Shown here in pieces: positions 3,268-57,255 of a stretch of DNA of 64,000 bases. This stretch comes from Acidimicrobiales bacterium (GTDB taxonomy: Bacteria; Actinomycetota; Acidimicrobiia; Acidimicrobiales; Aldehydirespiratoraceae). The notes under the pieces are model-generated. The model ran no database searches, was not told the origin of the DNA, and was given only the letters and a program-made list of their open reading frames with translations. Location of the stretch: positions 1,085,080 to 1,149,079 of the forward strand of contig OZ220491.1 in the NCBI GenBank assembly GCA_965116195.1, written 5' to 3'. Within the stretch, counting starts at the first letter, position 1; each line of letters starts with the position of its first letter. Made by a program: the position numbers and the translations under genes.

Positions 3268-3400
3268 ACATGGGTATGACACGGCGGGATTCCTCAGATG
3301 TCACGGCACCGCGAGACCATGGGTACGTGGGCACGGCACGGCGGGATTCCTCAGATGTCGCAGCGCCGCGCGATCATGGGCCTGTGGGTATGACATCGCT
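3268..3400. repeat. 57-bp tandem repeat x ~2.3; the last copy contains the ATG (3390) of the downstream CDS
   Basis: GGGTATGACA occurs at 3272 and 3386. ACGGCGGGATTCCTCAGATGTC occurs at 3281 and 3338. The period is 57, which is 19 codons and in frame. Confidence 0.85.
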
Positions 3401-3770
3401 TGGTTTCGCTGCGGCGGCTCGTTCGTTGGGTCAGGCTGCTCGCCTGCGCGGCCTCATCGTGTGTGACTTCGTCAGTCCCCCGAGGCGAGACGACCTCAAC
3501 CGTTCGATACGGTACCGCCCGGCCCCGGCACGGCCCGTTGTTGCGGTGCGTTTGCGAAACAGACCACCGAACGCAGTGCTCGCTGACATGATCGAAGGCT
3601 GCGTGGTGGCCAACCGGCTGAAGGGTGCCAGAGCAGATCTGATACGTTCCGCCCTCTGGCTGTCGGTTAATTGCCCGGAAAGCGAGCACGGTGTCCCGGA
3701 AAGCCAGGACCGTGGCGAGCAACGCGTCCATGCAAACCGCGTCCAGGTAGCCCGCACGCAGGTTGCCTGA
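3390..3770 (+). CDS. Hypothetical protein (function not recognised)
   Basis: In-frame part of ORF 3270..3770. ATG 3390 is the repeat copy adjoining unique sequence. The protein (MTSLGFAAAARSLGQAARLRGL...MIEGCVVANRLKGARADLIRSALW) has ordinary composition. The start could be 3270/3276 if the repeat is translated. Confidence 0.4.
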   Translation: MTSLGFAAAARSLGQAARLRGLIVCDFVSPPRRDDLNRSIRYRPAPARPVVAVRLRNRPPNAVLADMIEGCVVANRLKGARADLIRSALWLSVNCPESEHGVPESQDRGEQRVHANRVQVARTQVA

Positions 3771-4041
3771 ATGAGGCATGTGGCAGTTTCGCCTTTGGCA
3801 AGTTCCGACGTTTGTGATGCCCAGCCGCCGACCCCTTTGTAATCCGCCGTAGCAGGGTGCCGCAGGGTGTTGGTTCCTGCCGGTCAGACGAGCTGGGCAA
3901 CCGTTCAGAAACCGGAGAGTCGTCGGATGCGCTTCCAAGTGTCGGTCCGTGCCGGTCAGCCGAGCAGGGCAACCGATGACCAAACGCCGGAAACGCCCGG
4001 CGGTAGAGAACGGTGGGACAGCAGGTACCGTGACCCTCAGT

Positions 4042-4127
4042 GCCCGGGTGGCGAAATGGCATACGCGACTCGCTTAAAACGAGTTGTCCATAGTGGCGTG
4101 TGGGTTCGAATCCCACCCCGGGCACCA
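4042..4127 (+). tRNA. tRNA-Leu, anticodon UAA (reads UUA), with encoded CCA
   Basis: Hand-folded cloverleaf. Acceptor GCCCGGG/CCCGGGC. Anticodon stem ACTCG/CGAGT with loop CTTAAAA. Long variable arm. T arm GTGGG-TTCGAAT-CCCAC. Discriminator A followed by CCA. Confidence 0.9.
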
Positions 4128-4235
4128 TCTGGCGCGGGGGCATCCCCAACTCGCATCGCACGTTGCAGCATGCTGCGTGTCATATGTTGAGAAAATGGTA
4201 CACACGAACCGAGCCGTGGTAGCTGGAGGAACCGC

Positions 4236-5472: not shown

Positions 5473-6342
5473 ATGGCCGATTGTGCTTTTGTGGGTCTGG
5501 GGGTGATGGGCTATCCGATGGCGGGTCACCTCGTCTCGTCAGGCCATCAGGTGACGGTCTACAACCGCACAACTTCACGAGCGGCAGCCTGGGTCGGCGA
5601 GCACACAGGAACTGTCGCCCACACTCCGGCGGCTGCGGCCAAGGGCGCGGAGTTCGTGTTCGTGTGCGTGGGCAACGACGATGATGTGCGCTCGGTGACA
5701 CTCGGTGACAGCGGCGTATTGGCATCAATGGCTGCTGGATCCGTGTTGGTTGATCACACCACTGCATCGGCCGATCTGGCACAGGAACTTCATGCTGTTG
5801 CCTCGGCGCGCGGGGTCGGCTTCTTGGACGCACCCATATCGGGCGGGCAGGCTGGTGCCGAGAAAGGAGTGCTGACGGTGATGTGTGGCGGCAGTCAGGC
5901 AGATTTTGACCGTGCCCAGCAGGTGATCTGCGCCTACGCCAAAGCCGTCACGCTGCTCGGTGGGCCGGGCAGTGGTCAGCGCACCAAGATGGTCAATCAG
6001 ATTTGCATCGCCGGGCTGGTACAGGGTCTCGCCGAGGGTATTGACTTCGCCCGCCGTGCCGGGCTTGATGTGGATCAGGTTCTGGACACGATCTCGCAGG
6101 GAGCGGCGGGGTCATGGCAGATGGCCAACCGGGGCGCGACAATGGCACGTCGTGAGTTCGACTTCGGTTTCGCGCTGGACTGGATGCGCAAGGATCTTGC
6201 CATCTGCTTTGCAGAGGCTGAGCGCATCGGTGCCACCCTGCCGCTGACAGCGACTATTGATCAGCTGTACGCCCGGCTGCAACGCCAAGGCAAGGGCCGC
6301 TGGGACACGAGTTCACTGATTGAACTACTTGTGGATGAGTGA
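5473..6342 (+). CDS. NAD(P)-dependent beta-hydroxyacid dehydrogenase (3-hydroxyisobutyrate / 6-phosphogluconate dehydrogenase-like family)
   Basis: ORF 5467..6342. N-terminal Rossmann motif FVGLGVMGYPMAGHL. ATG 5473 has GGGGG upstream. Length is ~289 aa. Confidence 0.88.
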   Translation: MADCAFVGLGVMGYPMAGHLVSSGHQVTVYNRTTSRAAAWVGEHTGTVAHTPAAAAKGAEFVFVCVGNDDDVRSVTLGDSGVLASMAAGSVLVDHTTASADLAQELHAVASARGVGFLDAPISGGQAGAEKGVLTVMCGGSQADFDRAQQVICAYAKAVTLLGGPGSGQRTKMVNQICIAGLVQGLAEGIDFARRAGLDVDQVLDTISQGAAGSWQMANRGATMARREFDFGFALDWMRKDLAICFAEAERIGATLPLTATIDQLYARLQRQGKGRWDTSSLIELLVDE

Positions 6343-6490
6343 CCAGCCTGACGATCCGGCGAGCCTCTGGTGTCGCTGGCCGGGTTTGAGCTGCTTGTGG
6401 ATGAGTGACCAGCCTGGTGTTTCGCTGGTGATCCGGCGAGCCTCTGGTGTCGCTGGCCAGGTTTGAGTTGCTTGTGGATGAGTGACCGAC
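6328..6490. repeat. 66/77-bp tandem repeat x ~2.3 that copies the last codons plus stop (LLVDE*) of the dehydrogenase gene
   Basis: CTTGTGGATGAGTGACC occurs at 6328, 6394 and 6471. Confidence 0.9.
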
Positions 6491-6618
6491 CAAGCGTCAC
6501 GTTGGCAGTGATGACACGTTGCGGTGATGTCACATTGCAGTGAGAGTGATGTTGTGTTGCAGATGTTGTGTTGCAGTGGTGTCGCAGCGGCACCGTCCAG
6601 GCTTGGCCGCCAAGCCAA

Positions 6619-6724
6619 GGCGAACTCGTTGTGTTATTGCGGGGCGAGAACTCGTTGTGTTATTGCGCGGCGAAAACTCTTTGTGTTATTGCGCGGCGAA
6701 AACTCTTTGTGTTATTGCGCGGCG
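6619..6724. repeat. 26-bp tandem repeat x 4 copying the 3' end of sodA (FAAQ-stop on the minus strand)
   Basis: GTGTTATTGCG occurs at 6631, 6657, 6683 and 6709. The last copy holds the real TAA (6712-6714). Confidence 0.9.
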
Positions 6725-7302
6725 AAGTTGGCTGAGGCGAACTCCCAGTTGAGCAGGTGCTCCACGAAGGTGTCCACGTAGGCAGGCCTGGCGTTTTGGT
6801 AGTCCAGGTAATAGGCGTGTTCCCACACGTCAATGGTGAGCAGGGCTCGCAAGCCGTGACGCAGCGGCGTGTCGGCGTCGTCGGTGTTGAGGATGCTGAG
6901 GCCGTCGTCGCCGGAGACAAGCCAGGTCCAGCCGGAGGCGAAGTTGCCCACCGCTTTAGCGGCGAACTCCGAGTTGAACGCGTCCAGTGAGCCGAAGTCC
7001 CGGTTGAGCGCGGTGAGCAACTCAGCCGACGGTGATTCAGTGCCGCCCGGAGTCATTGAGTTCCAGTAAAAGGTGTGGTTCCACGACTGCGCGGCGTTGT
7101 TGAACAGAGCCGATGGCACGTCAGCAGCAGCAACGATGGACTCCAACGAAGCGTCCTCATGAGGCGTGCCCGTGATCATGCGATTGAGGTTGGCCACATA
7201 GGTGGCGTGATGCCGTCCGTAGTGAAAACTCATCGTGTGCGCAGTGATGTGTGGTTCCAGCGCATCGTCTTTGTAGGGGAGTGGGTCTTGTTTGATTGAC
7301 AT
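6712..7302 (-). CDS. sodA: Fe/Mn superoxide dismutase
   Basis: 196 aa. LPYKDDALEPHITAHTMSFHYGRHHATYVANLN...DVWEHAYYLDYQN are classic Fe/Mn-SOD motifs. Confidence 0.95.
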   Translation of the reverse strand: MSIKQDPLPYKDDALEPHITAHTMSFHYGRHHATYVANLNRMITGTPHEDASLESIVAAADVPSALFNNAAQSWNHTFYWNSMTPGGTESPSAELLTALNRDFGSLDAFNSEFAAKAVGNFASGWTWLVSGDDGLSILNTDDADTPLRHGLRALLTIDVWEHAYYLDYQNARPAYVDTFVEHLLNWEFASANFAAQ

Positions 7303-7382
7303 GGCAGAGGTGCCCTCCGGGTGTGGTTGAAAATGACCACCGAACCATACCGGCAGATCGGCTGAAACATATCGGCGGACCT

Positions 7383-7529
7383 GCTCAACCTGCGGTAATG
7401 CTCCCTCAGCCTGCGAAGAGGTCTGCTCAGCCTGCAGTCACGATTGCTCAGACTGCGGTCACGATTGCTCAGCCTGCGGTCACGATTGCTCAGCCTGCGG
7501 TCACGATTGCTCAACCTGCGAAGAGGTTG
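7383..7529. repeat. 21-bp tandem repeat x 7 copying the 3' end (NLFAG-stop) of the SMP-30 gene
   Basis: GCTCA(G/A)CCTGC units at 7383, 7404, 7425, 7446, 7467, 7488 and 7509. The last copy overlaps the real stop at 7511. Confidence 0.9.
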
Positions 7530-8389
7530 GTGGGTTGTCCCAGGGCGTCCACATCGGCTGCGAACAGCGCTCCGGAGTTGGGTTCGCCGCTGGTGTCGAT
7601 GCCTGCTATCGGATCACGAGCGGTGGTGACATACAGCGTGGCCAGGTCGGGTCCGCCGAAGCAGCAGCATGTGGTCTGCGGTGCTTTTGGCGTTACCACC
7701 TTCTGCATCCGCTCGCCGTCGGGTGAGAACTGCTGCACACCGAAGCCGCCGAAGAGCGCCACCCACAGACAGCCGTCAGCATCAACTGTCATCCCGTCCG
7801 GCAGACCGCTGCTGCCGTCAAAGGTATGGAAAGGTCGCCGTCGGTCAATGGCTCCGCTGTCGGGGTCATAGTCGAACTGGTCAATGCGGAACGTCAGGGT
7901 GTCAATGTGGTACATGGTTGAGCGGTCGGGACTCCAGCCGATGCCATTGGAGATGCGCACCTCCTCAAGCACTCGTTGCACGTTGTGGTCGCCGTCCACG
8001 CGATGCAGAGCTCCGACAGGCGAGCCGTCGTCGGCACCGTTCATCGTTCCCTGGAACAGCCTCCCCTCAGGGTCCACGGCACCGTCGTTGGTGCGGTTGG
8101 ATGCCGGTTCATCCGGCAGGTTGATAGTCACCTCAATCTCATCGGCCTGGTTGGTGAGGGCCACCGAAGCCCCCAGGCCCAGGGCCAAGCCCCCGCCGAC
8201 ACGGGGAGCCACATTGCTGACCGTGTTGTCGTAGCGCACCACGGACACCGGCCGGCTCGAAGCATGGTCAAAGCGATGCAGCGCTCGTCCGGTGATGTCC
8301 ACCCAGAGAAGCAGTTCCTCCACCGGTGACCACACACAGCCTTCGCCCAGTTTGGCTTCGGCTGCATGGACAACTTCTGCGTTGATCAT
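7511..8389 (-). CDS. SMP-30/gluconolactonase/LRE family protein
   Basis: Part of ORF 7511..8689. The start MINAEVVHAAEAKLGEGCVWSPVEELLLWVDITGRALHRFD was chosen at ATG 8389 (SD AGAGG). Beta-propeller-like repeats are present. Confidence 0.8.
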   Translation of the reverse strand: MINAEVVHAAEAKLGEGCVWSPVEELLLWVDITGRALHRFDHASSRPVSVVRYDNTVSNVAPRVGGGLALGLGASVALTNQADEIEVTINLPDEPASNRTNDGAVDPEGRLFQGTMNGADDGSPVGALHRVDGDHNVQRVLEEVRISNGIGWSPDRSTMYHIDTLTFRIDQFDYDPDSGAIDRRRPFHTFDGSSGLPDGMTVDADGCLWVALFGGFGVQQFSPDGERMQKVVTPKAPQTTCCCFGGPDLATLYVTTARDPIAGIDTSGEPNSGALFAADVDALGQPTNLFAG

Positions 8390-8426
8390 TGCTCTGGACC
8401 TCTGCTGATCATTGCTCTGGACCTCT
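8384..8426. repeat. 23-bp direct duplication of SD plus ATG of the SMP-30 gene
   Basis: GATCATTGCTCTGGACCTCT at 8384-8403 and 8407-8426. Confidence 0.9.
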
Positions 8427-8842
8427 ACGTCTGTTTTGGCAGTATTCGATGGCTCTGGCACCCGGTGGCATCTGAACCCGATGACTCTGGCTGGGTGACT
8501 TGGTAAGCGTCCGTGTATCATCGTCTGTCTGTCGTCGTCTGTCAATCGTCGTCTGTCAATCGTCGTGGCGAGCGTATACTTCAAACTCGTTGATGTCCGC
8601 ATGACTGCAATGGGGGTGGCGCATCTGTCATACGCACCAGAGCAGGGGCACCGAGTACTTGCCGCACGACTGCAATACGGGTGGCGCATCTGTCATGCGT
8701 CGTGGCGAGCGTACACTCCGAAGCACAATCGGTGTAGCCGTGACGCAGTGAGCGAAAAGCGTGGGCGATGTAGAACAGTGTCCGGTTGCGGCGAACCCGA
8801 GCAAGAATCCCAGTAGCAGCCTCAACACAGGAGCAACAGACA

Positions 8843-10078
8843 ATGAGCGATCAACATTCAGGCGATCAGCATCCAAGCGATCAGCATCCAGGCGAGCGGT
8901 ACACGATCATCTCGTCGGACTGTCATGCCGGCGGGAACATGGCCGCCTACGAGGAGTATCTTGATCCGGCCTGGCGCGAGGAGTTCAAGGCCTGGCGGGG
9001 TGCCTACCGCAATCCTTACCGTGATCTGCAAGATGACGGACGCTCCCGCAACTGGGACGACGACCGGCGGCTTGCTGAGCAGTACGACGACGGCATCGTG
9101 GCCGAGATCACCTTCCCCAACACCGTGCCGCCGTTCTATCCGACCGGAGCGCTGGTGGCTCGTCCACCCACTGACCGCAGCGACTACGAGCGGCGCTTGG
9201 CGGGGATCACCGCGCACAATCGTTGGCTGCGTGACTGGTGCGCTCGCTATCCCGACCAACGCTGTGGTCTGCCCCAGATATTCGCCGAGGACGTTGACGA
9301 CGCCGTTGCCACTCTGGAATGGGCCGCAGCGGAGGGTTTTCGCAGTTTCCTTTTGCCGCATATTCCGCCCGATGTTGGGCTGCCCGGTTACTGGGACCCG
9401 TGTTGGGATCGTCTCTGGGCAGCAGTGTCTGACCTGGACCTGGTGGTGACCCAGCACGGCGGCAACGGCGGCCCCAACTATGGCAAAGCACCGGCTGCCG
9501 GTGTGATCTTTTTGATGGAGGTGCCGTTCTATGCGCACCGCAACCTGGCTCATCTGATCATGTCGGGGGTGTTTGAGCGCTTTCCCGAGCTGCGTTACGT
9601 GATGACCGAGCAGGGTGTGGCCTGGCTGATCGAGGAGTTGCGCCGCATGGATGGCTATCACCGTCAGATGCGCGCAGGTCGTGTCGGTGAGTTGGGCTTC
9701 GCGGCAGACATCGTGTTGCCGTTGAAGCCGTCGGAGTACTTTGACCGCAATGTGTGGATAGGTGCCAGTTTTCCGTCGCCGGGTGAAGCTGAGGCTATCC
9801 GCAAGGTGGGCGTACACAAGGTGATGTGGGGCAGCGACTACCCGCATCACGAGGGCACTTATCCGTACTCGCTGGAGAGCCTCCAACGGGCGTTTTGCGA
9901 CTGGAGTGCCGAGGACATGCGTACTGTGCTGGCTGGCAACGCGGCTGAGCTTTACGGCTTTGACCTGGACAGGCTCGCTCCTCTGGCAGCAGCGCACGGC
10001 CCCACTGTGGAACAGGTGGCCACGCCACTGGCCGAGATACCGTCCAAGGCAACCAGCCCGGCCTTCTTCAAGCCGTAA
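8843..10078 (+). CDS. Amidohydrolase-2 (ACMSD-like) family metal-dependent hydrolase
   Basis: ORF 8786..10078. ATG 8843 with AGGAG upstream. Motifs IISSDCHAG and WGSDYPHHEG. The N-terminus has a 15-bp duplicated GDQHP(S/G) unit. Confidence 0.8.
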   Translation: MSDQHSGDQHPSDQHPGERYTIISSDCHAGGNMAAYEEYLDPAWREEFKAWRGAYRNPYRDLQDDGRSRNWDDDRRLAEQYDDGIVAEITFPNTVPPFYPTGALVARPPTDRSDYERRLAGITAHNRWLRDWCARYPDQRCGLPQIFAEDVDDAVATLEWAAAEGFRSFLLPHIPPDVGLPGYWDPCWDRLWAAVSDLDLVVTQHGGNGGPNYGKAPAAGVIFLMEVPFYAHRNLAHLIMSGVFERFPELRYVMTEQGVAWLIEELRRMDGYHRQMRAGRVGELGFAADIVLPLKPSEYFDRNVWIGASFPSPGEAEAIRKVGVHKVMWGSDYPHHEGTYPYSLESLQRAFCDWSAEDMRTVLAGNAAELYGFDLDRLAPLAAAHGPTVEQVATPLAEIPSKATSPAFFKP

Positions 10079-10084
10079 GCACTC

Positions 10085-10262
10085 CGTGAGGCGGCACTTC
10101 GTGGGCAGATGCATGACATCGTGTTGCTGTCGCAAGATGCAACAATGAGCAGCGCATTGTGAGGCGCATCATCAAGGGACACGAGTTCCAACAAGCGGCC
10201 AGTCGCAAGATGCAACAATGAGCAGCGCATTGTGAGACGGCACTTCGTGGGCAGCGCTTCGT
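10085..10262. repeat. 73-bp mosaic tandem repeat x ~2.4 ending on the GTG start of the arylsulfatase gene
   Basis: TCGCAAGATGCAACAATGAGCAGCGCATTGTGAG occurs at 10130 and 10203. GGCACTTCGTGGGCAG occurs at 10093 and 10239 (146 = 2 x 73). CTTCGTG is reused at the start codon 10261. Confidence 0.8.
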
Positions 10263-12876
10263 GACTGATCCCACCGGGGCCTACGCGGGCTTCGGGGGCA
10301 CCGTCGGCAAGGTCTTTTCCGCCTCCGAGCCTGATTGGCCGGTACCGCCCACGGCTCCTGATGGTGCTCCCAATGTGATCGTGATGATGGCTGATGACCT
10401 CGGCTATTCCGATCTGGGCTGCTATGGCTCCGAGATCAACACTCCCGAACTTGACCGGCTCGCCTCAGAAGGGTTGCGTTACACCGACTTTCATGTCAAT
10501 CCCATGTGCTCACCCACCCGGGCGTCTTTGCTGACCGGACTCAATCATCACATGGCTGGCATGGCAACTGTTCCTCACAGCGACCCCGGCTTTCCCGGCT
10601 ATGCCCACGAGTTGCGCGAGAACACGGTCACCATGGCCGAGGTGTTGCGTGATGCGGGCTGGGCCACTTTCATGGTGGGCAAGTGGCATCTCACCAAGGA
10701 TGCTCACCTCAGCGACGGTGCTCCCAAGTCGAGTTGGCCTCTGCAACGGGGCTTTGATCGCTATTACGGGATTTTGGATGCTTTCACCAACTTTCATCAG
10801 CCTCATCGTCTTTACGAGGACAACCACCACCTCAACGTTGATCAATACCCCGATGACTATTACTTCACTGATGATCTGACCGATCAGGCTTTGCGAATGG
10901 TTGATGAACTGCGGTCATCGCATCCGACCCGACCGTTTTTCATGTACTTCTCTCATGGGGCTGTGCATGCTCCGCTGCAGGCACCTGCAACGGATATTGA
11001 ACTGTTCCGGGGTCGCTATGACGCGGGCTGGGATGTGTTGAGAGCCGAGCGCTTCCAGCGTCAGAGGCAGTTGGGTGTGGTGCCTCCTCACGCTGTGCTG
11101 CCGCCGCGCAACGCCGAGGAGTTGCACGAGGCCGGTGCCTGGGATGATCTTGATGCTCGCTCCAGAGAGTTGTTTGCCCGCTATATGGAGGTGTACGCGG
11201 GCATGGTTCACAATGTTGATCGCAACTTCGGTCGCCTGCGCCGACATCTTGAAGCCGTCGGCGAGTGGGACAACACGATTGTGCTGTTCACCAGTGACAA
11301 CGGCGGCTCCCGTGAGGGTCAGTACACCGGTACCTCCGCGTATTTCCGAACTCTGCTCACGCAGGTGCGCTCGACGGGTCTGGAAGATGTGGCTGTTGAC
11401 CACGAGCGTATTGACATGCTGGGTGGCCCGCGTGCGTTGGCTCATTATCCGATGGGTTGGGCGATGGTGTCATGCACACCGTTCCGGCTCTACAAGATCA
11501 ACACTCACCGGGGTGGTCACAGTGTGCCCTTCATCCTGCACTGGCCGGCACGCTTCGAAGCCGGAACTGGAGTTGGGGTTGGTGCCGCAGCCGGAGTTGG
11601 GGGTGGTGCCGCAGCCGCAACGGGAGTTGAAGATGGTGCCAGAACCCAAGCCGGAGTTGTTGCCGTAGTTGGTGTGCAAGCCGGACCTGGAACTGGAGTT
11701 GAAGTTGGTGCCGGAGCAGTAGTTGAAGCCGACGTTGGAGTTGGAGCGGCAGCCGGAACTGGAGTTGAAGGTGGTGCCAGAACCCAAGCTGGAGTTGTAG
11801 TGGGTGGCCAAGCCGAAACTGGAACAGGAACCGTAGTCGGAGAGGTAGTCGGCGACGGTTCGTTGGCTGGGGGGATACGTACCCAGTACCAACATGTGAC
11901 CGACGTGTTGCCGACCGTGTGTGAGTTGGTTGGCGTGGCAGTGCCGCGTACCCGTCACGGTGTGGCTGTGCCAGAGCCGGCCGGGGCCAGTTTTGCGATG
12001 ACCCTGCACGATGCCACCGCGCCCTCCACCCATCCCGAGCAGTACTACGAGATGATCGGGCATCGTGGCTATTACCGTGATGGTTGGTCTATCGTCACCT
12101 GTCACCGGCCACGCCGGGCTTTCAGCGACGATCACTGGGAGTTGCACAACCTCGCCGATGACCCGACCGAGTCGGTGGACCTGGCTTCTGAATATCCGGA
12201 CAAACTCCAGGAACTTGAGCAGGCCTGGGACGCGGCGGCCTGGGCCAATCAGGTTTACCCGTTGGATGAGGGCAATTCGCTCAAGATGATCCTGCGGCCT
12301 CCGTGGTATCAACAGTGGGCAGCCGAGACGAAGTTGCGGCCTGGAACGCCCACCCTGGAGCGTTGGCGATCCCAGCAGCTGATCTTTCAGAAGAATTTTG
12401 ATGTTGATGTGGCATTGCGTTGGCGGCCCGGTGACTGTGGCATGCTCGTGGCCCATGGCGATCAGGGAGGCGGTTATGCGCTGTATGTCGAGGATGACTG
12501 CCTGATGTTTGTCCACAACGCATACGGTGATTTGACCACTGTGAATTGTGGGTTGGTGCCTACGGGTGCCTCGAAGGTGTGTCTGGCGATGGAGAACCCC
12601 GGCAATCTTGTCTGGAACGCACGGCTGAGTGTGGACGGTGAGCCGGTGGGGGAGGCCCGGGGTTTGGTGTCACTGATGGCGATGGCACCTTTTGAGGGCA
12701 TTGATGTGGGGATTGACCGCCGTTCTCCTGTCAGCTGGGATGTCTATGAACGTCACGGCCCCTTTGCCTTTACAGGTGATCTGCACTCGGTTACCTACCG
12801 CCCGGGCGAACTCGCCCCTGATGCCGGTTCGTTGTGGCTCGACTACATTCGTTCCACCGGCACTCGTTACGAGTAG
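10261..12876 (+). CDS. Arylsulfatase (formylglycine-dependent, CSPTR motif) carrying a ~105-aa repetitive insertion
   Basis: 871 aa. VIVMMADDLGYSDLGCYGSE...NPMCSPTRASLLTG. The Gly/Val/Ala-rich insertion is at 11561-11875. Confidence 0.88.
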   Translation: MTDPTGAYAGFGGTVGKVFSASEPDWPVPPTAPDGAPNVIVMMADDLGYSDLGCYGSEINTPELDRLASEGLRYTDFHVNPMCSPTRASLLTGLNHHMAGMATVPHSDPGFPGYAHELRENTVTMAEVLRDAGWATFMVGKWHLTKDAHLSDGAPKSSWPLQRGFDRYYGILDAFTNFHQPHRLYEDNHHLNVDQYPDDYYFTDDLTDQALRMVDELRSSHPTRPFFMYFSHGAVHAPLQAPATDIELFRGRYDAGWDVLRAERFQRQRQLGVVPPHAVLPPRNAEELHEAGAWDDLDARSRELFARYMEVYAGMVHNVDRNFGRLRRHLEAVGEWDNTIVLFTSDNGGSREGQYTGTSAYFRTLLTQVRSTGLEDVAVDHERIDMLGGPRALAHYPMGWAMVSCTPFRLYKINTHRGGHSVPFILHWPARFEAGTGVGVGAAAGVGGGAAAATGVEDGARTQAGVVAVVGVQAGPGTGVEVGAGAVVEADVGVGAAAGTGVEGGARTQAGVVVGGQAETGTGTVVGEVVGDGSLAGGIRTQYQHVTDVLPTVCELVGVAVPRTRHGVAVPEPAGASFAMTLHDATAPSTHPEQYYEMIGHRGYYRDGWSIVTCHRPRRAFSDDHWELHNLADDPTESVDLASEYPDKLQELEQAWDAAAWANQVYPLDEGNSLKMILRPPWYQQWAAETKLRPGTPTLERWRSQQLIFQKNFDVDVALRWRPGDCGMLVAHGDQGGGYALYVEDDCLMFVHNAYGDLTTVNCGLVPTGASKVCLAMENPGNLVWNARLSVDGEPVGEARGLVSLMAMAPFEGIDVGIDRRSPVSWDVYERHGPFAFTGDLHSVTYRPGELAPDAGSLWLDYIRSTGTRYE

Positions 12877-12879: not shown

Positions 12880-13245
12880 CATGTGCGCGGCGTGCAAGTT
12901 GTTGGTCGGTCGGTTGCTCTGCTCGGTGGGGGCCGGACAACCCAGTGACACTTGTGCGCGGCGTGCAAGTTTGTTGGTCGGTCGGTTGCTCTGCTCGGTG
13001 GAAGCGGTGCAACCTGGTGACACTTGTGCGCGGCGTGCAAGTTTGCCCGTCAGTCGGTTGCTGTGCTCGGTGGAAGTGGTGCAACCTGGTGACACTTGTG
13101 CGCGGCGTGCAAGTTTGTTGGTCGGTCGGTTGCTCTGCTCGGTGGGGGCCGGACAACCCAGTGACACTTGTGCGCGGCGTGCAAGTTTGCCCGTCAGTCG
13201 GTTGCTGTGCTCGGTGGAAGTGGCGCAGTTGTCTGCGGCCGAGTC
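12880..13245. repeat. 72-bp tandem repeat x 5 (two alternating variants)
   Basis: CTTGTGCGCGGCGTGCAAGTTT occurs at 12951, 13023, 13095 and 13167, plus a leading copy. This accounts for all the overlapping ORFs between 12670 and 13289. Confidence 0.92.
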
Positions 13246-13355
13246 AACCAATCAAACCGCACTCAGTTAGTCTGTTGCACGGTCGGTAGGCCAGTCAGCT
13301 GGTTGAGAAGCAGGGACAGCCGATGATTGAGAAGCTGGGACTGCGAGCCGGGCAT

Positions 13356-13420
13356 GGAGGCGTGTGATGCACATCGGTTATTCTGTCGGGCACGGAGGTG
13401 TGTGATGCACATCGGTTATA
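13356..13420. repeat. 38-bp duplication of SD + ATG + first 5 codons of the acyl-CoA dehydrogenase gene
   Basis: GGAGG(C/T)GTGTGATGCACATCGGTTAT at 13356 and 13394. Confidence 0.9.
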
Positions 13421-14635: not shown

Positions 14636-14832
14636 TTCAACATTGGCACCCACATCGTCTCTGTAGTGGTATGTCCTGATGGTTCTTGGTGTCCGGGATC
14701 ATTTGGCCTCGATGATGATGATGCCGTAGCGCTTTCAACATTGGCACCCACATCGTCTCTGTAGTGGTATGTCCTGGTCGTTCTTGGTGTCTGGGATCAT
14801 TTGGCCTCGATGATGATGCCGTAGCGTTGTTG
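14636..14832. repeat. 98-bp tandem repeat x 2 including the last ~12 codons plus stop of the HTH gene
   Basis: TTCAACATTGGCACCCACATCGTCTCTGTAGTGGTATGTCCTG occurs at 14636 and 14734. ATCATTTGGCCTCGATGATGATG appears in both copies. Confidence 0.9.
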
Positions 14833-24260: not shown

Positions 24261-24456
24261 TCTGAGTTCGGCCAACAGGGTTCGTCACCCACCCCGCCGT
24301 CCGGCAGCGAGTTGTCCAGGTCTCACCTCGGGTTCACCTGGGTGTTTGCCAACATGTTCTCCACTGAGTCTGCGGGTACTGTCAGCGCACATTGGTCTTA
24401 TCCGTGACGATCTGCCTGTGACGATGACTTCTAGCCTTCCGTCCCACAAACAACTC

Positions 24457-38357: not shown

Positions 38358-38700
38358 GGCGCAACAGAGTTCCCGCAACTTGTCAGGGCGAGGGACGAAG
38401 GCATGACAACCAGCAAGTGGGGTCTGCTTGGGCGCGACAAAGCTCCGGCAATTTGTCAGGGTGAGGGTTCTGAGTGCGTTGGCTGGCTTTCTGGGAATAG
38501 AGGGCGCAACAGAGTTCCCGCAACTTGTCAGGGCGAGGGACGAAGGCATGACAACCAGCAAGTGGGGTCTGCTTGGGCACTACAAAGTTCCCGCAATTTG
38601 TCAGGGTGAGGGTTCTGAGTGCGTTGGCTGGCTTTCTGGGAATAGAGGGCGCAACAGAGTTCCGGCAACTGTCAGGCTGAGGGCCGAGGGCCTCAGGCCG
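38358..38700. repeat. 145-bp tandem repeat x ~2.3 (internally two ~72-bp half-units); the last copy runs into the 3' end of the intradiol dioxygenase gene
   Basis: GGCGCAACAGAGTTCC occurs at 38358, 38503 and 38648. The half-unit CCGCAACTTGTCAGGGCGAGGG / CGGCAATTTGTCAGGGTGAGGG is offset by 72. Confidence 0.9.
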
Positions 38701-42486: not shown

Positions 42487-42559
42487 TCCGGTGCCATCCC
42501 CGAAAAGACCCTTGTGGCACACCGAGGGATGTTGAGGCCGATGTTGCACGGCAGCAGCG

Positions 42560-46964: not shown

Positions 46965-47095
46965 GTGTCCTTTCTTGAAGGTCTGGTCTTGAAGTTCTGG
47001 TCTTGAAGGTCTGGTCTTGAAGTTCTGGTCTTCAGGAGTCCGGTCTTGAAGAGTCTGGCAGCTGTCGCCTAGAAAGTCTGGCAGATGTCGGCCCA
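46965..47095. repeat. Short (~14-15 bp) GGTCTTGAAG(G/T)TCT repeats plus a duplicated copy of the 3' end of the small dioxygenase subunit
   Basis: Read directly. AGTCTGGCAG(C/A)TGTCG(C/G)CC is present twice; the second copy contains the real stop (47069-47071). Confidence 0.8.
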
Positions 47096-47807: not shown

Positions 47808-49208
47808 ATGACTGAGCATCGGGCGCAGGCGCTGACAGGAGAGGCCAGCGGGTACTCGCACGATTGTCGGCGCTGTTGCAATCGGGCGCAGGCGCTGATA
47901 GGAGAGGCCCTTGCCGAGCGGGTGACGCGCCTCGGCCACACCCTCCAGGCGAGCGGCGTGGCGGTCACTGTTGCCGAGATCATTGACGCCTCTGCGGCGG
48001 CGACCTACGTGGAGCTGGGCTCTCGCGAGGAGTTTCGAGCAGCCCTGAAGGCCACCCTTGTCAAGAGCGAGCGCCATCTGGCCGTCTTTGATGCTGTCTT
48101 TGACCGGCTGTTTCCGCTCAGCGGGACCGTTGGTGCCGGTGTTGCTGCACCCACCGCTGGGGACGCGGCGAGCGTCATTGCCCATGACGGCGACACGGCG
48201 GCGCTGGCAGCACGTCTGGTGGATGAGCACGGAGGTTTTGAGGGTGTGATGCGAGGTGAGCAACACCATCTTCAGCGTGTGCTGCGTGCCGCTGACCTGG
48301 CTCGGCTGATGAGCGATGCCCGCAAGACAAACCCGGAGTTGACGGCTGTGGAACTGCGGGAGCGCATTGAACGCCTCAAGCAACTCATGGCAGCCGAGGT
48401 GCGCTACCGCCTGGGGGAATCCTGCGACTCCGGTGTCACCGGTGACACCGACCAAGCCGCAGATGACACGGCGGTGCAGGACATCGAGTTTCTGAACGCC
48501 AGTCGAAGCCAGCTCGAGGAAATACGTGAGTCTGTCAGACCTCTGGCCCGAAGGCTTGCGGCGCGCCTGGCTCGGCGCAAACAATCCCGTCGTGGTCGCA
48601 ACGTCAACTTCCGCCGCACGGCCCGCTGGTCTCTCGCCACCGGTGGTACGCCGATTGATGTGGCCTACCAGCGAGCGCGCTTGCACAGGCCGGACCTGTA
48701 TGTGCTCTGTGACATCTCGGGCTCGGTGGCGCACTTCTCGGTGTTCACGCTGACGCTGATGTCCGCGCTCTCTGCTGAGGTGGCCAGGTGCCGTTCATTT
48801 GTGTTCGTTGATGCCGTTGACGAGGTCACCGGTCTGCTCGCCGCCACCGGCCACGGCATTGAACCCTGGCAGATCATGCGCAACACCAACGTGATCGCGG
48901 CTGACGGACACTCCGACTACGGAGCGGTACTGAACCAGTTCTGGGACGAGATCGGTGACCGGGAACTGCGACCCAACTCAACACTGTTGATCACGGGTGA
49001 TGCCCGAACGAACTACCGCGAGACGAGGGCCTCAACTCTTGAGGCGATCTCCGGTCGATGTCGCGCCGTGTACTGGTTGAATCCCGAGCCCCGCCAGGAC
49101 TGGGACACCCACGACTCAGAGATGAGCACCTATGCGCAGCACTGCACAGCTACGTTTGAGGTGCGAACGGTGCGACAGCTTGTCAGCTGTGTGGAAGAAC
49201 TGCTCTGA
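47808..49208 (+). CDS. vWA domain protein, CoxE-like
   Basis: 466 aa. MIDAS-type VLCDISGSVAHFS and LLITGDARTN. The start is uncertain because the first ~35 codons lie in a 63-bp duplication (ATCGGGCGCAGGCGCTGA(C/T)AGGAGAGGCC at 47818 and 47881). Confidence 0.75.
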   Translation: MTEHRAQALTGEASGYSHDCRRCCNRAQALIGEALAERVTRLGHTLQASGVAVTVAEIIDASAAATYVELGSREEFRAALKATLVKSERHLAVFDAVFDRLFPLSGTVGAGVAAPTAGDAASVIAHDGDTAALAARLVDEHGGFEGVMRGEQHHLQRVLRAADLARLMSDARKTNPELTAVELRERIERLKQLMAAEVRYRLGESCDSGVTGDTDQAADDTAVQDIEFLNASRSQLEEIRESVRPLARRLAARLARRKQSRRGRNVNFRRTARWSLATGGTPIDVAYQRARLHRPDLYVLCDISGSVAHFSVFTLTLMSALSAEVARCRSFVFVDAVDEVTGLLAATGHGIEPWQIMRNTNVIAADGHSDYGAVLNQFWDEIGDRELRPNSTLLITGDARTNYRETRASTLEAISGRCRAVYWLNPEPRQDWDTHDSEMSTYAQHCTATFEVRTVRQLVSCVEELL

Positions 49209-49475: not shown

Positions 49476-49919
49476 CGTGTGGCTGTACCTCTCTTATCAG
49501 GGCAGGTCTCTCAGCGGGCCCGTTGGCTGCGTGGTGTCTGCGTGGGTTGGGATTGAGGGTTTGTGGGTCAGGGCCTGCCGAGTGAACTTCGACTGCGGGA
49601 CAGCATAGCGAGGTGCAACGAGGACCGGACGGGCAATCTCGGACGAATTTGTTTCTGGGAGACCCGCCCCGTCGGGCAGAGGTACTTTACAGGGATTATG
49701 CAAGCGAGACAGATGCTGCGAGACCTGCCCTGTCGTTCAGTGGCCCCAGCGCAGCCAAGATCGCACCGCAGGCGACGGCGGCGACAACCGATTTGCGCCC
49801 ATGACTGACACGTTGTCGGGTTCGTTGGTGTCGGCTGCCACGAGACCGATGGCGGCGACAACCGATTTGCCCCCACGATTGACAGTCTCAGCGCTTCCAT
49901 CGGCATAAGGTAGAAGAGT

Positions 49920-50271
49920 GTCCCGCTTCCCATGCACAGGAGGTGACCCATATGCCCAGGGCCTCGCACTCGGCCCCATATTCCCTCGCCCCCCATGCGC
50001 AAGAGGCGCGGTGATGCAGGTGCAATGGCAGTCCGGGCTGTCATGTCACACCTCTACGTTCCGCTCCCCTTGCGCAGGAGGTGACGAGGTGAGCGGCTCA
50101 TCGGGAGCCGGTCAAGTTGCGTCCGCCCCCGTTGCGCAGGAGGTGACCCGGACCGCATCACACGTGGGTACTCACCTTCGGGTCCGCCCCCGATGCGCAG
50201 GAGGTGACCGGAGCCTGTGTGGCGACCAGTTGGGGACTGGTAGTCCGCCCCCGATGTGCAGGGAGGTGACG
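49920..50271. CRISPR. CRISPR-like array: 6 repeats of 28-31 nt (consensus GTCCGCCCCCGATGCGCAGGAGGTGACC) with unrelated 32-34 nt spacers (one of 46 nt); orphan, with no cas gene in the window
   Basis: Repeats at 49920-49948, 49981-50011 (degenerate), 50058-50086, 50121-50148, 50182-50209 and 50243-50271. The period is 61-63 for the four best copies. Alternative readings are a structured leader or a decayed tandem duplication of the arc 5' end. Confidence 0.4.
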
Positions 50272-50272
50272 G

Positions 50273-52033
50273 GTGAGCGGCTTTGATGATGCGCACAACT
50301 TTGACGAAGCGCACCACGATCCAGCACTGACACGTCGCAGGCTGGCCGAGTTGCAGAGTGAGGTCACGTCTCTGAAGCGACGTCTCCAGGACGCCTCCAA
50401 GCGGGCGCGCGCCATGGAGCAGCGTGTCTTCGAGAACAAGGGCAGGCTCTCACAGGCGGTGTCACAGAACGAGAGGTTGACCGCCATGCTGCGCGATGCC
50501 CGCGAGCACATCAGCACGCTGCGTGAAGAGGTGGAAAAGCTCACGCAGCCACCGAGCGGTTACGGGACCGTGCTTGATCACAACGACGACGGAACGGTTG
50601 ATGTGCGTTGCGGAGGACGAAAGATGCGGGTGGCGGCACAGCCCGAACTGCTCAAGGAGTTGCGTGTCGGTGACCAGGTGGTGCTGAACGAATCGTTCAG
50701 TGCGATCATGGCGCTGCGCCCTGACCGCACAGGCGAGGTGGTCACGGTAAAGGAACTCCTGCCCGGTGGTGACCGTGCGCTGATAGTCGGCTCGGCTGAT
50801 GAGGAGCGGATCGTGCAACTCGCCGAGAGCGTGAAGCAGGAACCGATCCGCAGTGGTGACAACGTGCTCGTGGACTCCTCAGCTGCCCTGCTGATAGAGC
50901 GCCTGCCACGGCCCGAGGTGGAGGATCTCGTGCTGGAAGAGGTCCCCGACATCAGCTACGTGGACGTGGGCGGGCTTGACACCCAGATCGAGCAGATCAC
51001 CGACGCTGTGGAGCTGCCGTTCGTGCATCAGGCGCTGTTCGCCGACTACGACCTTCCTGCCCCCAAGGGCGTGCTGCTCTACGGGCCCCCCGGCTGCGGC
51101 AAGACCCTGATTGCCAAGGCTGTTGCCAACAGTCTGGCCCGCAAGGTGTCGGAGGTGTCCGGTGACACCAACGCTCGCAGCTATTTCCTCAACATCAAGG
51201 GTCCCGAACTCCTCAACAAATACGTCGGCGAGACCGAACGACAGATCCGGCTGGTGTTTCAGCGTGCCCGCGAGAAGAGCGAGCAGGGCTGGCCTGTGAT
51301 CGTGTTCTTCGACGAGATGGAATCGCTGTTCCGCACCCGTGGCTCGGGGATCAGTTCGGACATCGAGTCGACGATCGTGCCCCAGTTGTTGGCCGAGATC
51401 GATGGTGTTGAGGCGTTGCGGAATGTGATCGTCATCGGTGCGTCCAACCGTGAGGACCTGATAGACCCCGCGATCCTGCGTCCCGGGCGTCTTGATGTCA
51501 AGATCAAGATCGAACGTCCCAATGCCGAGGCAGCCGCCGCGATCTTCTCCCGCTACCTGGTGCCGACACTGCCCATAGCTGCTGAGATGGTCGAGACGGT
51601 CGGTGGTGGCGATCCGGACAAGGCCGTCCGAGCCATGATCGAACAGACGGTCGAGGACATGTACCGACCGGTTGACGACAATCAGTTCCTGGAGGTCACC
51701 TACCAGAACGGCGACAAGGAGATCATGTACTTCCGCGACTTCGCCTCGGGGGCCATGATCGAGAATGTCGTGCGACGGGCCAAGAAGCTGGCGATCAAGC
51801 GCGAGATCGCGGGCGGGGAGCGTGGCATCGCCCTGGTTGACCTGTCGGCTTCGGTCCGCCAGGAGTTCAAAGAGCACGAAGACCTGCCCAACACGACCAA
51901 CCCGGACGACTGGGCCCGGATCTCGGGCAAGAAGGGCGAACGCATCGTCTTTGTGCGCACACTGGCCTCAAGCGAGGACCTCGTCTCGGGGGGACGCTCA
52001 ATCGAGAGGGTCCAGACCGGCCAGTACCTGTGA
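50273..52033 (+). CDS. arc: Proteasome-associated AAA ATPase (ARC/Mpa)
   Basis: 586 aa. N-terminal coiled coil, Walker A GPPGCGKT, Walker [10 protein letters not shown], and the C-terminal GQYL proteasome-docking motif. Confidence 0.96.
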
Positions 52034-55035: not shown

Positions 55036-55036
55036 G

Positions 55037-56986
55037 ATGGGACTGCCGATGGGTGAACATACCGCAGCAGGTGTTCCGAGGTCACAGCAACCTGATCAAT
55101 GGGAGGAGGCAGCGACAACCAACGGCGAGCCGGAGCAGCCGAGCCTGTCGGCTCGCCAATGGGCCCACAAGAACCTCTTCTCGACGCCTTTCAACTCGGT
55201 GCTGACCGTGGTGTTCGGGTTGTTGATCCTGCTCACCGTCAGAGGCCTGCTCAACTTCACTTTCAGCGAGGAACGCAACTGGGAAGCAGTGCGCACCAAC
55301 CTGCGGTTGATCTTCACCCACGCCTACCCGCAGGACCAGTACTCCCGTATCTGGGTGTGTGTCGGTGCCGTTGTGGTGCTGGCCGGCCTGTCATTGGGTT
55401 TGCGGGTGGGAGCCGGCCGTGGTGTGTCGGTGAAGAAACTCGCGAGCAGTTTGATGGCCCTCGGCATTGCCATTGCTGTCGGGGTGGTGCTGCGTGAGCC
55501 GTCGGTGCGTACTGATGCCGAGGGATCGGTTTTGCGTGACGAAGGCGGCGGCGTTGTCCGGGAGTCTTTCGCTGCGGCCATGTCGGATCGCTGGGTCTGG
55601 TGGCTGGTAGCCGCTCTGTTGGCCGGTGCTGGTGCCGCTTTGTGGTACAGCATGGATGATCTGAAACGTCGTAACACGTTTGTTCCACCGGTCGAGTTGG
55701 GACTGGCGCTGATCGGGTTGTTGGTGCTTTCGGCCTGGGTGTATCCGTGGGGCCACTTCGCTTTCGCTGAGGGTGAGTTCATTGCTGAACCCGGCCGCAC
55801 GGTGGCAATGTCCACCAAGTTGCCGTGGACCGTCATGTGGCTGTTGCTGGTGGTGGCTGTCGCAGTTGGTCGGCAGATGCGCAGCCTGGGTACCGCGCAG
55901 CAGATCAGACTGGCATTGAACCTGGCCTGGCTGCTGTGCCCGTTCTTGCTGTTCTGGGTGGTACTGCGTGACCCGGCGCTGGACCGGGGACGTGTTGTCG
56001 CTGTGGACATACCGCTGGCTGTGCTGTTCGCTGTCTTTGGAGGGGCTGTGGTGTGGGTGCTCACAAACCCCAAGATCGGGGAACTGGGCCGCCTGCTGGC
56101 GATGGGTTTGCTGGGTCTCGCCTTGTTCAACTGGGTTGCGGCCTTCTTCGGCTGGTATCCGATGCTGCAAAAGGTGCGGCTCAGCTTCCTGCTGTTGGCA
56201 CTGGTGGCGTTGCTGGCCCACAACTTCGCAGGCGAGCGATCAAAGCGTCTGCGACTGCTGGTGGCATGGGGCTTGGGAATGGCCTTGTTTCACTACATGG
56301 CCACGATCATAAACACCCCGTCAACGGTGGAAACACCCACCGAAGCTCTGATAGGCGGGTTTGCGGTCACGGTCATTGTTGCTGTCTTCACCACAATGTT
56401 CTCGTTTCCTCTGGGCGTGTTGTTGGCGTTGGCGCGTACATCCAAGTTGCCCATATTCAGAGTGCTCGCAACCTCCTACATTGAGGTGATCAGGGGAGTG
56501 CCACTGATCACAATCCTGATTTTCTTTGCCATCATCGTGCAACTCTTTCTGCCCGACGGAATGAGCATCAGCCAACTGGCGGCAGCCACGCTGGGATACA
56601 CACTTTTCTCTGCTGCCTATCTGGCCGAGAATGTGCGAGGAGGACTCCAAGCGATACGCCGGGGCCAGTATGAGGCATCAGACGCAGTGGGGCTCAGCAC
56701 GGTGCAGCGAACCTTGTTCATCGTGTTGCCCCAGGCGCTGCGCGTTTCCATACCGCCGCTGGTGGGTCAGATGATAGCTATTTTCAAGGAGACCTCGCTG
56801 CTGGCGATCATCGGTATCTTTGACCTGCTGCGCATGGCCAACAGTGTCATTCCGGCTCAGACTCAGTTCCTGGGGGTCAAACGTGAGGGACTGCTGTTTG
56901 TGTGCGTCGTCTACTGGGTGTTCGCCTACAGCATGTCCAGGTACAGCCAGCGCCTAGAGAAGCGCCTGGGAGTGGGTGAGCGCTAG
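55037..56986 (+). CDS. Amino-acid ABC transporter permease (AapM/BztC-like) with a long extra N-terminal multi-TM region
   Basis: 649 aa. EAA-loop region QYEASDAVGLSTVQRTLFIVLPQA. Confidence 0.85.
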   Translation: MGLPMGEHTAAGVPRSQQPDQWEEAATTNGEPEQPSLSARQWAHKNLFSTPFNSVLTVVFGLLILLTVRGLLNFTFSEERNWEAVRTNLRLIFTHAYPQDQYSRIWVCVGAVVVLAGLSLGLRVGAGRGVSVKKLASSLMALGIAIAVGVVLREPSVRTDAEGSVLRDEGGGVVRESFAAAMSDRWVWWLVAALLAGAGAALWYSMDDLKRRNTFVPPVELGLALIGLLVLSAWVYPWGHFAFAEGEFIAEPGRTVAMSTKLPWTVMWLLLVVAVAVGRQMRSLGTAQQIRLALNLAWLLCPFLLFWVVLRDPALDRGRVVAVDIPLAVLFAVFGGAVVWVLTNPKIGELGRLLAMGLLGLALFNWVAAFFGWYPMLQKVRLSFLLLALVALLAHNFAGERSKRLRLLVAWGLGMALFHYMATIINTPSTVETPTEALIGGFAVTVIVAVFTTMFSFPLGVLLALARTSKLPIFRVLATSYIEVIRGVPLITILIFFAIIVQLFLPDGMSISQLAAATLGYTLFSAAYLAENVRGGLQAIRRGQYEASDAVGLSTVQRTLFIVLPQALRVSIPPLVGQMIAIFKETSLLAIIGIFDLLRMANSVIPAQTQFLGVKREGLLFVCVVYWVFAYSMSRYSQRLEKRLGVGER

Positions 56987-57039
56987 CTGTGGGGAAGCGT
57001 TCAGCCACCGAGCGTTCGACCACTGAGAGTTTGGCCACG

Positions 57040-57255
57040 GAGGGTTTGGCCACCGAGGTCAGTTTGCGACCGGTGCAACAGTCAGCATCGCAGAGTTTAG
57101 CCACCGAGGGTTCAACCACCGAGGTCAGTTTGCGACCGGTGCAACAGTCAGCATCGCAGAGTTTAGCCACCGAGGGTTCAACCACCGAGGTCAGTTTGCG
57201 ACCGGTGCAACAGTCAGCATCGCAGAGTTTAGCCACCGAGGGTTCAACCACTGGG
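57040..57255. repeat. 66-bp tandem repeat x ~3.4 inside the ABC operon (between the permease and ATPase genes)
   Basis: GAGGTCAGTTTGCGACCGGTGCAACAGTCAGCATCGCAGAGTTTAGCCACC occurs at 57055, 57121 and 57187. Confidence 0.92.

Follow-up and report, generated by a model that had tools for sequence, protein, structure and literature searches.

Tandem repeats anchored on gene ends were analysed in a 64-kb stretch of bacterial DNA (the window, 64,000 nucleotides (nt), in which all coordinates are counted from the first letter) that belongs to an acidimicrobiial genome of the sponge-symbiont group 'Ca. Aldehydirespirator'. The arrays are dense, are of local origin, bear signatures of selection on reading frame and translational coupling, and recur at orthologous gene termini in related genomes. 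A mechanism that seeks gene boundaries is not needed. The explanation we favour, at a probability of about 0.7, is a high rate of making or keeping short local duplications and insertions in this lineage, with purifying selection on gene integrity, frame and coupling leaving the survivors at gene ends.

Under this explanation, events with units of 14-145 bp would be made or kept at an unusually high rate, and selection would purge those that break a gene or its translation. Four kinds of survivor would be left: arrays lying wholly in spacers, duplications across a gene end that give one intact copy and one dead fragment, in-frame repeats in tolerant N- or C-terminal tails, and, at coupled junctions, insertions of a length of 2 mod 3. 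In the last kind a pseudo-start would open a short relay open reading frame (ORF) ending on the true start codon, and the stop/start coupling geometry would therefore be kept. The short units look like products of slippage at microhomology; for the high rate, possible causes are that selection is relaxed in a host-associated lineage or that replication or repair is altered. The apparent boundary-copying mechanism may then be read as a selection filter, visible in the sequence as a frame rule, an intact-copy rule and a coupling rule.

Density, local origin and placement of the arrays

Genes in the window were called from codon usage and then checked against Pfam, and the gene names proposed in an earlier note on this DNA were borne out. 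With Tandem Repeats Finder (score at least 50, period at least 7, overlapping rows merged), 82 rows were reduced to 26 arrays covering 3903 bp, or 6% of the window, and 20 triplet-shuffled windows yielded a mean of 0.35 arrays each. The earlier note had proposed such a run for the whole genome and had counted at least 18 repeat-bearing intergenic regions, which agrees with our count of about 20 of the roughly 48 spacers. Where the program reported nothing, direct repeats were present at every position that the note had given. The arrays consist of head-to-tail copies of one unit in register, with higher-order structure in several of them (15/30/60, 27/54, 41/83 and 72/145 nt). Arrays with a period of at least 42 nt numbered 13 in the 64-kb window, as compared with 15 in related loci totalling about 1.3 Mb.

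An all-against-all comparison of 24 units, with rotation, gave chance matches of 9-11 nt only, and neither the units nor the inserts described below had another copy in the rest of the window, which argues against a dispersed element. The view that the unit sequences differ between loci, and thus reflect a process, was therefore upheld, the more so as orthologous sites carry their own versions. The short units, among them those of sodA (26 nt), SMP-30 (21 nt), PnpC (14 nt) and livM (15 nt), each reproduce an uninterrupted stretch of native sequence, and the sodA unit has the microhomology TTCGCC at both of its ends, in line with the prediction from slippage.

The best genomic relatives of the window's Arc protein are sponge metagenome-assembled Acidimicrobiia, namely 'Ca. 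Aldehydirespirator' (L001, OZ242020.1, 88% amino acid identity), L002-L006 and 'Ca. Poriferisodalis'. L001 and L005 are collinear with the window from 39.6 to 62 kb, and the metagenome contigs L081, L082 and L084 from 5.4 to 16.6 kb, the relatives in the metagenome scan being 75% identical. The comparisons of copy number are between species, and they show that it varies at the same site. The SMP-30 terminus TTCGCxGGTTGA occurs once in L082 and in L083, three times in L084, seven times in L081 and 6.6 times in the window; the PnpC 3' end occurs once in L005, twice in L001 (13-nt unit) and six to seven times in the window. In the vWA gene of L001, an independent in-frame 66-nt duplication has end points unlike those in the window. 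Array-bearing spacers are also much longer in the window: the spacer between the sulfatase and ACAD genes measures 528 nt in the window versus 22 nt in L081 and L084, the ferredoxin-arc spacer 797 nt versus 220-265 nt in relatives, and the spacer from the permease to the next gene 372 nt versus 40-77 nt. The comparison of orthologous intergenic regions suggested earlier thus revealed related genomes repeating the same termini with copy numbers of their own. In 'Ca. Poriferisodalis' (L037, 9438-9562; also L030 and L038) a tandem repeat (36 nt x 3.5) takes in the ferredoxin 3' end with its stop codon, so that a second genus of sponge symbionts also has gene-end repeats.

It had been asked whether start and stop codons are overlapped more often than a permutation would give. 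When the arrays of the window were placed at random (5000 permutations), coding sequence was clearly avoided, with 8 arrays in coding versus 17.9 expected and no permutation as low. The enrichment at terminus codons was weak (8 versus 5.0 expected, P=0.09), and a survivorship model was therefore used instead. In this model a random duplication of length l is lost only when it falls wholly inside a gene, and the probability that a survivor contains a terminus is P(terminus) = 1 - max(0, g0-l+1)/(g0+l-1), where g0 is the spacer length minus the extra copies. A terminus was contained in 14 of the 27 non-coding arrays versus 12.4 expected (P=0.28), and 13 of the 27 contained none. With units of tens of bases and ancestral spacers of about 0-250 nt, a start or a stop codon must fall within about half of the survivors. 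The earlier proposal that duplication prefers gene boundaries is not upheld, as survivorship suffices.

Reading frame and translational coupling

The periods of the coding arrays were multiples of three in ten of ten cases ((1/3)^10 = 1.7e-5), the values being 15, 15, 15, 18, 24/30/66, 27, 42, 57, 63 and 3-24 nt, and such periods were found in 9 of the 27 non-coding arrays. The coding arrays are confined to N- or C-terminal tails or to a linker, and relatives lack them. The livM array retains the ATGA overlap with the livH stop.

Where a unit carries a start codon beside an out-of-frame stop, its period is 2 mod 3, and the pseudo-start opens a short ORF that ends on or just before the real start. 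For SMP-30 (23 nt), the upstream copy has an 8-codon ORF ending in ATGA on the real start, and for ACAD (38 nt) a 12-codon ORF ending in TGATG on the real start. The citryl-CoA-lyase-like gene (83 nt) has two 26-codon ORFs in series, each stopping 5 nt before the next ATG. At livG/livF (77 nt) a 26-codon ORF runs from ATGA to ATGA; the same junction is a plain ATGA overlap in L005, and in L001 it has the 77-nt period and 26-codon ORF of the window with an insert that cannot be aligned to the window's.

The prcB-prcA junction was surveyed in 59 acidimicrobiial loci including the window, three of which have large negative spacers and were left uninterpreted. The two genes overlap by ATGA in 38 of the 59 loci and by 1 nt in two, and in the window they are separated by 266 nt, where the prcB 3' end forms an array additional to those of the earlier note. 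About 15 independent expansions were recognised (9, 9, 17, 38, 47, 50, 53, 58, 65, 65, 74, 110, 122, 270 and 296 nt), and 11 of the 15 are 2 mod 3 (binomial p=0.0018). Ten of them hold one unbroken ORF of 13-99 codons, which begins with A/GTGA on the prcB stop and ends with ATGA on the prcA start. The sister genomes L064 and L067 have a common 38-nt insert whose length and ORF are kept at only 56% sequence identity, indicating that the ORF body drifts neutrally. The resemblance between the pseudo-start and the genuine 5' end of prcA weakens away from the reinitiation codon (27, 24, 12, 11, 6, 5, 4 and 4 nt). In L023 the spacer holds a 69-nt unit repeated four times, wholly within the 99-codon relay ORF. 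The junction can be regarded as a natural experiment in which insertions at an overlapping stop/start survive when they create a relay ORF, and this would be one route for the birth of small ORFs.

Block-plus-insert units and competing explanations

Several points weigh against the favoured explanation. The survivorship null is rough, being built on hand-curated arrays, our own gene calls and crude ancestral spacer lengths; with 27 arrays it could miss a moderate bias, and for units shorter than 30 nt a terminus was contained in 5 versus 3.0 expected. Many long units consist of a block of 24-41 nt (93-100% identical between copies) and an insert of 31-49 nt, a structure that plain duplication does not give. 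These inserts match neither flank, nor the 500 nt on either side (both strands), nor the block, nor the rest of the window. In the long arrays, block and insert alternate n times and one more block closes the array, the inserts being unlike the native flanks; examples are the 3' end of the carbonic anhydrase gene (7 x 73 + 33 nt, a 33-nt block alternating with a 40-nt insert) and the array upstream of trmI (2 x 73 + 35 nt). Random slippage would not predict the clustering of periods at about 61-77 nt.

About 10 window loci and about 15 loci of relatives have the block-plus-insert structure. The sizes fall into two groups, 28-30 + 31-34 nt (arc, vWA and the arrays at 24457 and 30354) and 38-39 + 35-38 nt (the arrays at 10129 and 49773 and livG/livF), with periods in the window of 61-63 and 73-77 nt. 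The individual pairs are 28+33 (three times in arc), 29+34, 29+33 and 30+31 in the one group and 38+35, 39+38 and 38+36 in the other. In the arc array, 27-28-nt blocks with unrelated inserts of 33, 33 and 34 nt and a period of 61-62 nt give a CRISPR-like geometry. Diversity-generating retroelements were also considered, but the window ORFs scanned contained no reverse transcriptase domain. The base composition of the inserts is not odd, as it matches the genome, and an origin of the inserts in nearby DNA or decayed block copies was rejected, with no match within 500 nt on either strand.

Such units could have been written by machinery that measures and duplicates a target of about 28-39 nt around a new fragment of about 31-38 nt. 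The best candidate for this would be off-target Cas1-Cas2 integration (neo-CRISPR) of short foreign fragments in a virus-exposed sponge symbiont, scattering CRISPR-like mini-arrays over the chromosome, with recombinational amplification afterwards and survival at gene ends only, and we regard it as doubtful. No other process known to us copies about 30 nt of target to both sides of an insert of about 33 nt. The pair sizes lie near those that our detector returned for its positive control, E. coli CRISPR-1 (29-31 + 30-33 nt), and block/insert pairs reach 0.25 per kb in the window versus 0.014 in relatives, 0.01 in a Rhodococcus plasmid (100 kb) and 0 in E. coli (50 kb). Off-target integration is reported to spawn new arrays (Nivala et al. 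2018, through the citing papers PMC6698737 and 10.1101/148544). Against this, the Pfam scan of about 50 window ORFs found no cas domain or true CRISPR array and Rfam gave no CRISPR match, while the blocks are degenerate, share no motif across loci and are not palindromic in the manner of CRISPR repeats or terminators (mean z 0.15). At prcB-prcA no fixed ruler is apparent, since the inserted lengths form a continuum from 38 to 74 nt and the duplicated blocks one from 4 to 28 nt, and the beginning of one arc insert repeats the region of the arc start codon. The inserts had no BLAST match in 50,697 phage records and three 24-mers from them were absent from viral contigs, which says little for an uncultured sponge symbiont; the number of fixed events implied per genome is also very large. 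An alternative source of the long units is old duplications whose blocks are held by selection and short-tract gene conversion while the remainder drifts, which fits the gradient of prcA likeness and is strained by perfect 28-38-nt blocks beside fully unrelated sequence. CRISPR machinery and some repair route may be considered as candidate writers of the block-plus-insert structure.

It is also improbable that the arrays are kept as useful, whether as copy-number-variable leaders and trailers that would adjust expression (contingency loci), as multiple Shine-Dalgarno (SD) 'standby' sites or as repeated operators. The SD-containing 28 nt of arc are conserved across six copies where the remainder is not, the two arc copies of L001 evolved in concert, the IclR divergent promoter region carries a 41-nt block three times at 66 nt, and arrays persist at the same termini across species. 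Relay ORF length is likewise kept while the sequence drifts, at 77 nt between the window and L001 and at 38 nt between L064 and L067. However, a regulatory role is unlikely for the many arrays at 3' ends or in convergent spacers, the genes concerned are ordinary metabolic and housekeeping genes, and the arc leader is not unusually structured (folding z = -1.4, not significant). Phase-variable contingency loci have units of 1-9 nt in promoters or 5' coding regions, where changes of frame or spacing switch expression, and the units here are mostly 14-145 nt and often at 3' ends or in convergent spacers. Dispersed mobile elements of the kind of mycobacterial interspersed repetitive units (MIRUs) or miniature inverted-repeat transposable elements, inserting at gene ends, would account for the ATGA-ORF-ATGA geometry described for MIRUs (PMC12548453) and for some prcB-prcA inserts flanked by the 4-nt ATGA repeat only. 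They are very improbable: no sequence is shared among the 24 units or the inserts or with the rest of the 64-kb window, a span that low-copy families could escape, many units are plainly copies of the adjoining gene end, and the window ORFs scanned include no transposase. Assembly artefact is a generic concern for repeats in metagenome-assembled genomes, and nothing specific to it was found here; it is unlikely, with a chance close to nil, as the copies have ordered variant positions and intact gene ends and repeats at the same termini also appear in assemblies made independently for other species, both short-read and chromosome-level. On balance, local duplication and insertion filtered by purifying selection remains the explanation that we prefer.

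Individual loci and known systems

The coordinates of the arrays are collected in Table 1. At 13 of the 16 loci that the earlier note had listed, the repeat was found as described there, including the terminal codons and stop of the dehydrogenase, sodA, SMP-30, carbonic anhydrase and PnpC (its small dioxygenase subunit) and the start regions of SMP-30, ACAD, the lyase-like gene, livF and arc; the arylsulfatase start, GTG 10261, is backed by relatives. Two of these are taken with reserve, since the HTH gene rests on our own gene call (14797-15069) and a weak Pfam match although the 98-nt repeat is plausible as its end, and the three IclR copies are only 63-78% identical. Three loci needed correction or caution. 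The vWA repeat, described as SD plus start, is an in-frame duplication inside the N-terminal coding region, and the N-terminus MTEHR is common to L001; at the intradiol dioxygenase a 7-nt run spans the stop and the main array falls 2 nt short of it; and the in-frame 57-nt repeat at 3268-3400 stands next to an ambiguous start (ATG 3270, 3276 or 3390), in an ORF without a Pfam match.

Table 1. Repeat arrays in the window, with the strand where one is assigned (units and spacings in nt)
Feature	Coordinates	Strand	Repeat
Hypothetical ORF 3270-3770, 5' end	3280..3393	+	in-frame 57 nt x 2; GGGTATGACA at 3272 and 3385
Dehydrogenase (3-hydroxyisobutyrate-dehydrogenase-like; Pfam), 3' end	6320..6501	+	last 7 codons + TGA x 3, spacing 66 and 77 nt; copies at 6320, 6386, 6463; gene stop 6340-6342
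Convergent spacer	6498..6576		16 nt x 2.8 and 14 nt x 2.1, both short and intergenic only
sodA, 3' end	6623..6726	-	26 nt x 4; unit, last 4 codons + stop (TTCGCCGCGCAATAA, in each of the 4 copies) + 11 nt downstream
SMP-30, 3' end	7382..7528	-	21 nt x 6.6, seeded on F-A-G-stop; stop 7511-7513
SMP-30, 5' end	8383..8428	-	23 nt x 2 of SD + ATG; real start 8389
Intergenic, no gene terminus	8517..8566		14 nt x 3.6
Amidohydrolase	8847..8895	+	in-frame 15 nt x 3.3 from codon 2; relatives without repeat
Amidohydrolase stop/arylsulfatase start	10086..10264	+	nested 73-nt repeat; 38-nt block x 2; 23-nt block x 2 next to the start region
Arylsulfatase interior	11559..11829	+	in-frame 24-, 30- and 66-nt repeats forming a ~100-amino-acid insert
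Intergenic (sulfatase-ACAD spacer)	12882..13220		72 nt x 4.7
ACAD, 5' end	13300..13424	+	24 nt x 2, then 38 nt x 2 of SD + ATG + 6 codons; start 13405
HTH-like small gene, 3' end	14636..14831	-	98 nt x 2; second copy, last ~12 codons + stop 14797
Spacer, restriction-modification/HNH island	24456..24886		palindromic CATCTCCCCGCGGGGGAGG 4-5 times at 54-65 nt, then 60 nt x 3.2; no terminus
trmI upstream	29152..29332		73 nt x 2.5 (35-nt block + 38-nt insert); ends 10 nt before start 29343
Block pair	30354..30444		30-nt block x 2 around unrelated 31-nt insert; period 61
Carbonic anhydrase, 3' end	32447..32990	+	73 nt x 7.5; first unit, last 7 codons + TGA
Citryl-CoA-lyase-like, 5' end	33993..34215	-	41.5/83 nt; start + first ~9 codons (ATG 34024-34026)
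CoA-transferase/IclR divergent spacer	35448..35620	+	41-nt block x 3 at 66 nt; last copy with IclR start GTG 35588
Intradiol dioxygenase vicinity	38358..38717		72/73-nt (145-nt) array ending 2 nt before stop 38693
livM, 5' end	40592..40740	-	in-frame 15 nt x ~10 of ATG + first 4 codons; absent from L001 and L005
livF C-terminal tail (lengthened)	41699..41754	-	in-frame 18 nt x 3; TGATG overlap with livH retained
livG stop/livF start	42472..42587	-	39-nt block x 2, 77 nt apart, duplicated across the junction; stop 42560, start 42486
PnpC (small dioxygenase subunit), 3' end	46973..47071	-	14 nt x 6-7 from CCAGACTTTCTAG; stop 47069
vWA, N-terminal coding	47818..47909	+	in-frame 63-nt duplication (29-nt block + 34 nt); start ATG 47808
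Ferredoxin-arc spacer, no terminus	49773..49884		38-nt block x 2, 74 nt apart
arc, 5' end	49921..50285	+	six 27-28-nt blocks (consensus GTCCGCCCCCGATGCGCAGGAGGTGACC) with arc SD; last serves start GTG 50273
Permease downstream	56996..57262		15 nt x 4 + 66 nt x 3.6; begins 10 nt past permease stop
prcB, 3' end	61013..61306	+	last codons + TGA (61042-61044) x 3 at 72 nt, then 65-nt pair

The six arc blocks are 61-75 nt apart and 71-96% identical, separated by mutually unrelated inserts of 33-47 nt, and the arc leader of L001 has two blocks 62 nt apart. The arylsulfatase insert is absent from relatives, which have only 9 nt at that position. The opposite-strand HTH-like gene (14608-15210) lies between two ACAD genes, which in L081 and L084 are 20-88 nt apart and without it. 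The carbonic anhydrase ORF (31967-32470) matches only positions 2-71 of 156 of the Pfam beta-CA profile, and its C-terminal half may be divergent or remodelled by the 3' array. The 41-nt blocks of the CoA-transferase/IclR divergent promoter region could be operator sites instead of neutral repeats. The CATCTCCCCGCGGGGGAGG motif region (24456-24653), between hsdR and the HNH/DUF222 gene, may be a hairpin repeat of the repetitive extragenic palindromic or terminator-like type. The weak-scoring ORF 28104-29213 (minus strand), which has no Pfam match, contains 27 nt x 7 (peptide PVTEVEVTN) and 42 nt x 2 and could encode a repetitive surface protein or be a decaying gene.

The coding density of the window is about 80%, and its G+C content is 60%, compared with 68-70% in L001-L005 and L081-L084 and 58% in L006; relaxed selection or changed repair could underlie this shift towards AT relative to its closest relatives. 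The region 15000-29300 has a lower G+C content (54-57%) and many defence genes, including type I restriction-modification genes (hsdM, hsdS, hsdR), the HNH/DUF222 gene and a weak toxin-like ORF. Further genes of this kind are a PD-(D/E)XK nuclease (2095-3051), an MT-A70 methylase with a truncated MunI-like restriction fragment (4236-5400) and an AbiEii toxin (62864-63871). The right end of the window carries an actinobacterial pupylation cluster (arc, a Pup-ligase-family gene, pup, prcB and prcA). In the Rfam scan of the window, tRNA-Leu was the sole family matched, and no CRISPR family was.

A literature search returned nothing on tandem repeats in sponge-symbiont Acidimicrobiia and nothing specific on gene-terminus repeats generally. 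The earlier note knew of no described mechanism that duplicates gene boundaries preferentially; MIRUs are a described analogue, located at start codons and provided with an internal ORF that is coupled to the flanking genes (PMC12548453, PMC3184786). MIRU variable-number tandem repeats (VNTRs) are the closest known system, and as judged from sequence the window repeats do not appear to be members of that family. MIRUs insert at start codons with an internal ORF coupled at a -4 spacing (2025 review, PMC12548453), and their ORFs overlap both flanking genes (PMC3184786, citing Supply 1997). The likeness extends to an actinobacterial host, units of 40-100 bp that are often tandem and intercistronic in operons, variable copy number, and internal ORF ends that overlap the flanking stop and start at -4, which is thought to keep coupling (PMC12548453; PMC3184786). 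An ORF overlapping the flanking stop and start in this way was found at livG/livF, SMP-30, ACAD, the lyase-like gene, in L001 and in 10 prcB-prcA expansions. Unlike the window units, which are locus-specific and often copies of gene ends, MIRUs form one family of about 40-50 dispersed copies thought to be mobile, and the chance-level matches among the 24 units give no shared consensus; many window arrays are moreover at 3' ends or outside operons. The coupling logic of MIRUs would thus extend to unrelated, locus-specific sequences in another actinobacterial class.

The relay ORFs also resemble the short upstream ORFs known from coupling and reinitiation, which bring ribosomes to a downstream gene (PMC12548453), in that they start on the upstream stop (ATGA/GTGA), end on the downstream start (ATGA/TGATG) and conserve length while the sequence drifts, but here they would be by-products of insertion at a formerly overlapping junction, with putative translation.

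Ordinary bacterial VNTRs or minisatellites arise by slipped-strand mispairing. The window arrays share with them the head-to-tail copies, microhomology at the edges of short units (sodA), higher-order units and copy numbers that differ between relatives. They differ in a far higher density (6% of the window, about 20 of roughly 48 spacers) and in long units of block plus unrelated insert, which are no product of slippage on native sequence. With spacers grown up to 24-fold by satellite-like DNA, the window would represent a satellite-rich bacterial genome, unusual for a compact genome.

Nivala, Shipman and Church reportedly obtained neo-CRISPR arrays in 2018 by off-target Cas1-Cas2 activity, in which about 28-38 nt of native sequence are duplicated around an insert of about 31-38 nt. 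The window resembles this in its native blocks of about 28-38 nt around unrelated sequence of about 31-38 nt and, at arc, in a 61-nt period with unique inserts, but no cas genes were seen in the window, the blocks are degenerate and without a common motif, the prcB-prcA sizes are not fixed, and in many arrays the 'spacers' are identical, as in an amplified unit. Defects of flap endonuclease (yeast rad27, 5'-nuclease mutants of E. coli polA) cause an excess of tandem duplications of tens of bp bounded by short direct repeats. The window shares with this mutator signature the excess of such duplications, which offers a mechanistic lead only, with the relevant genes lying outside the window.

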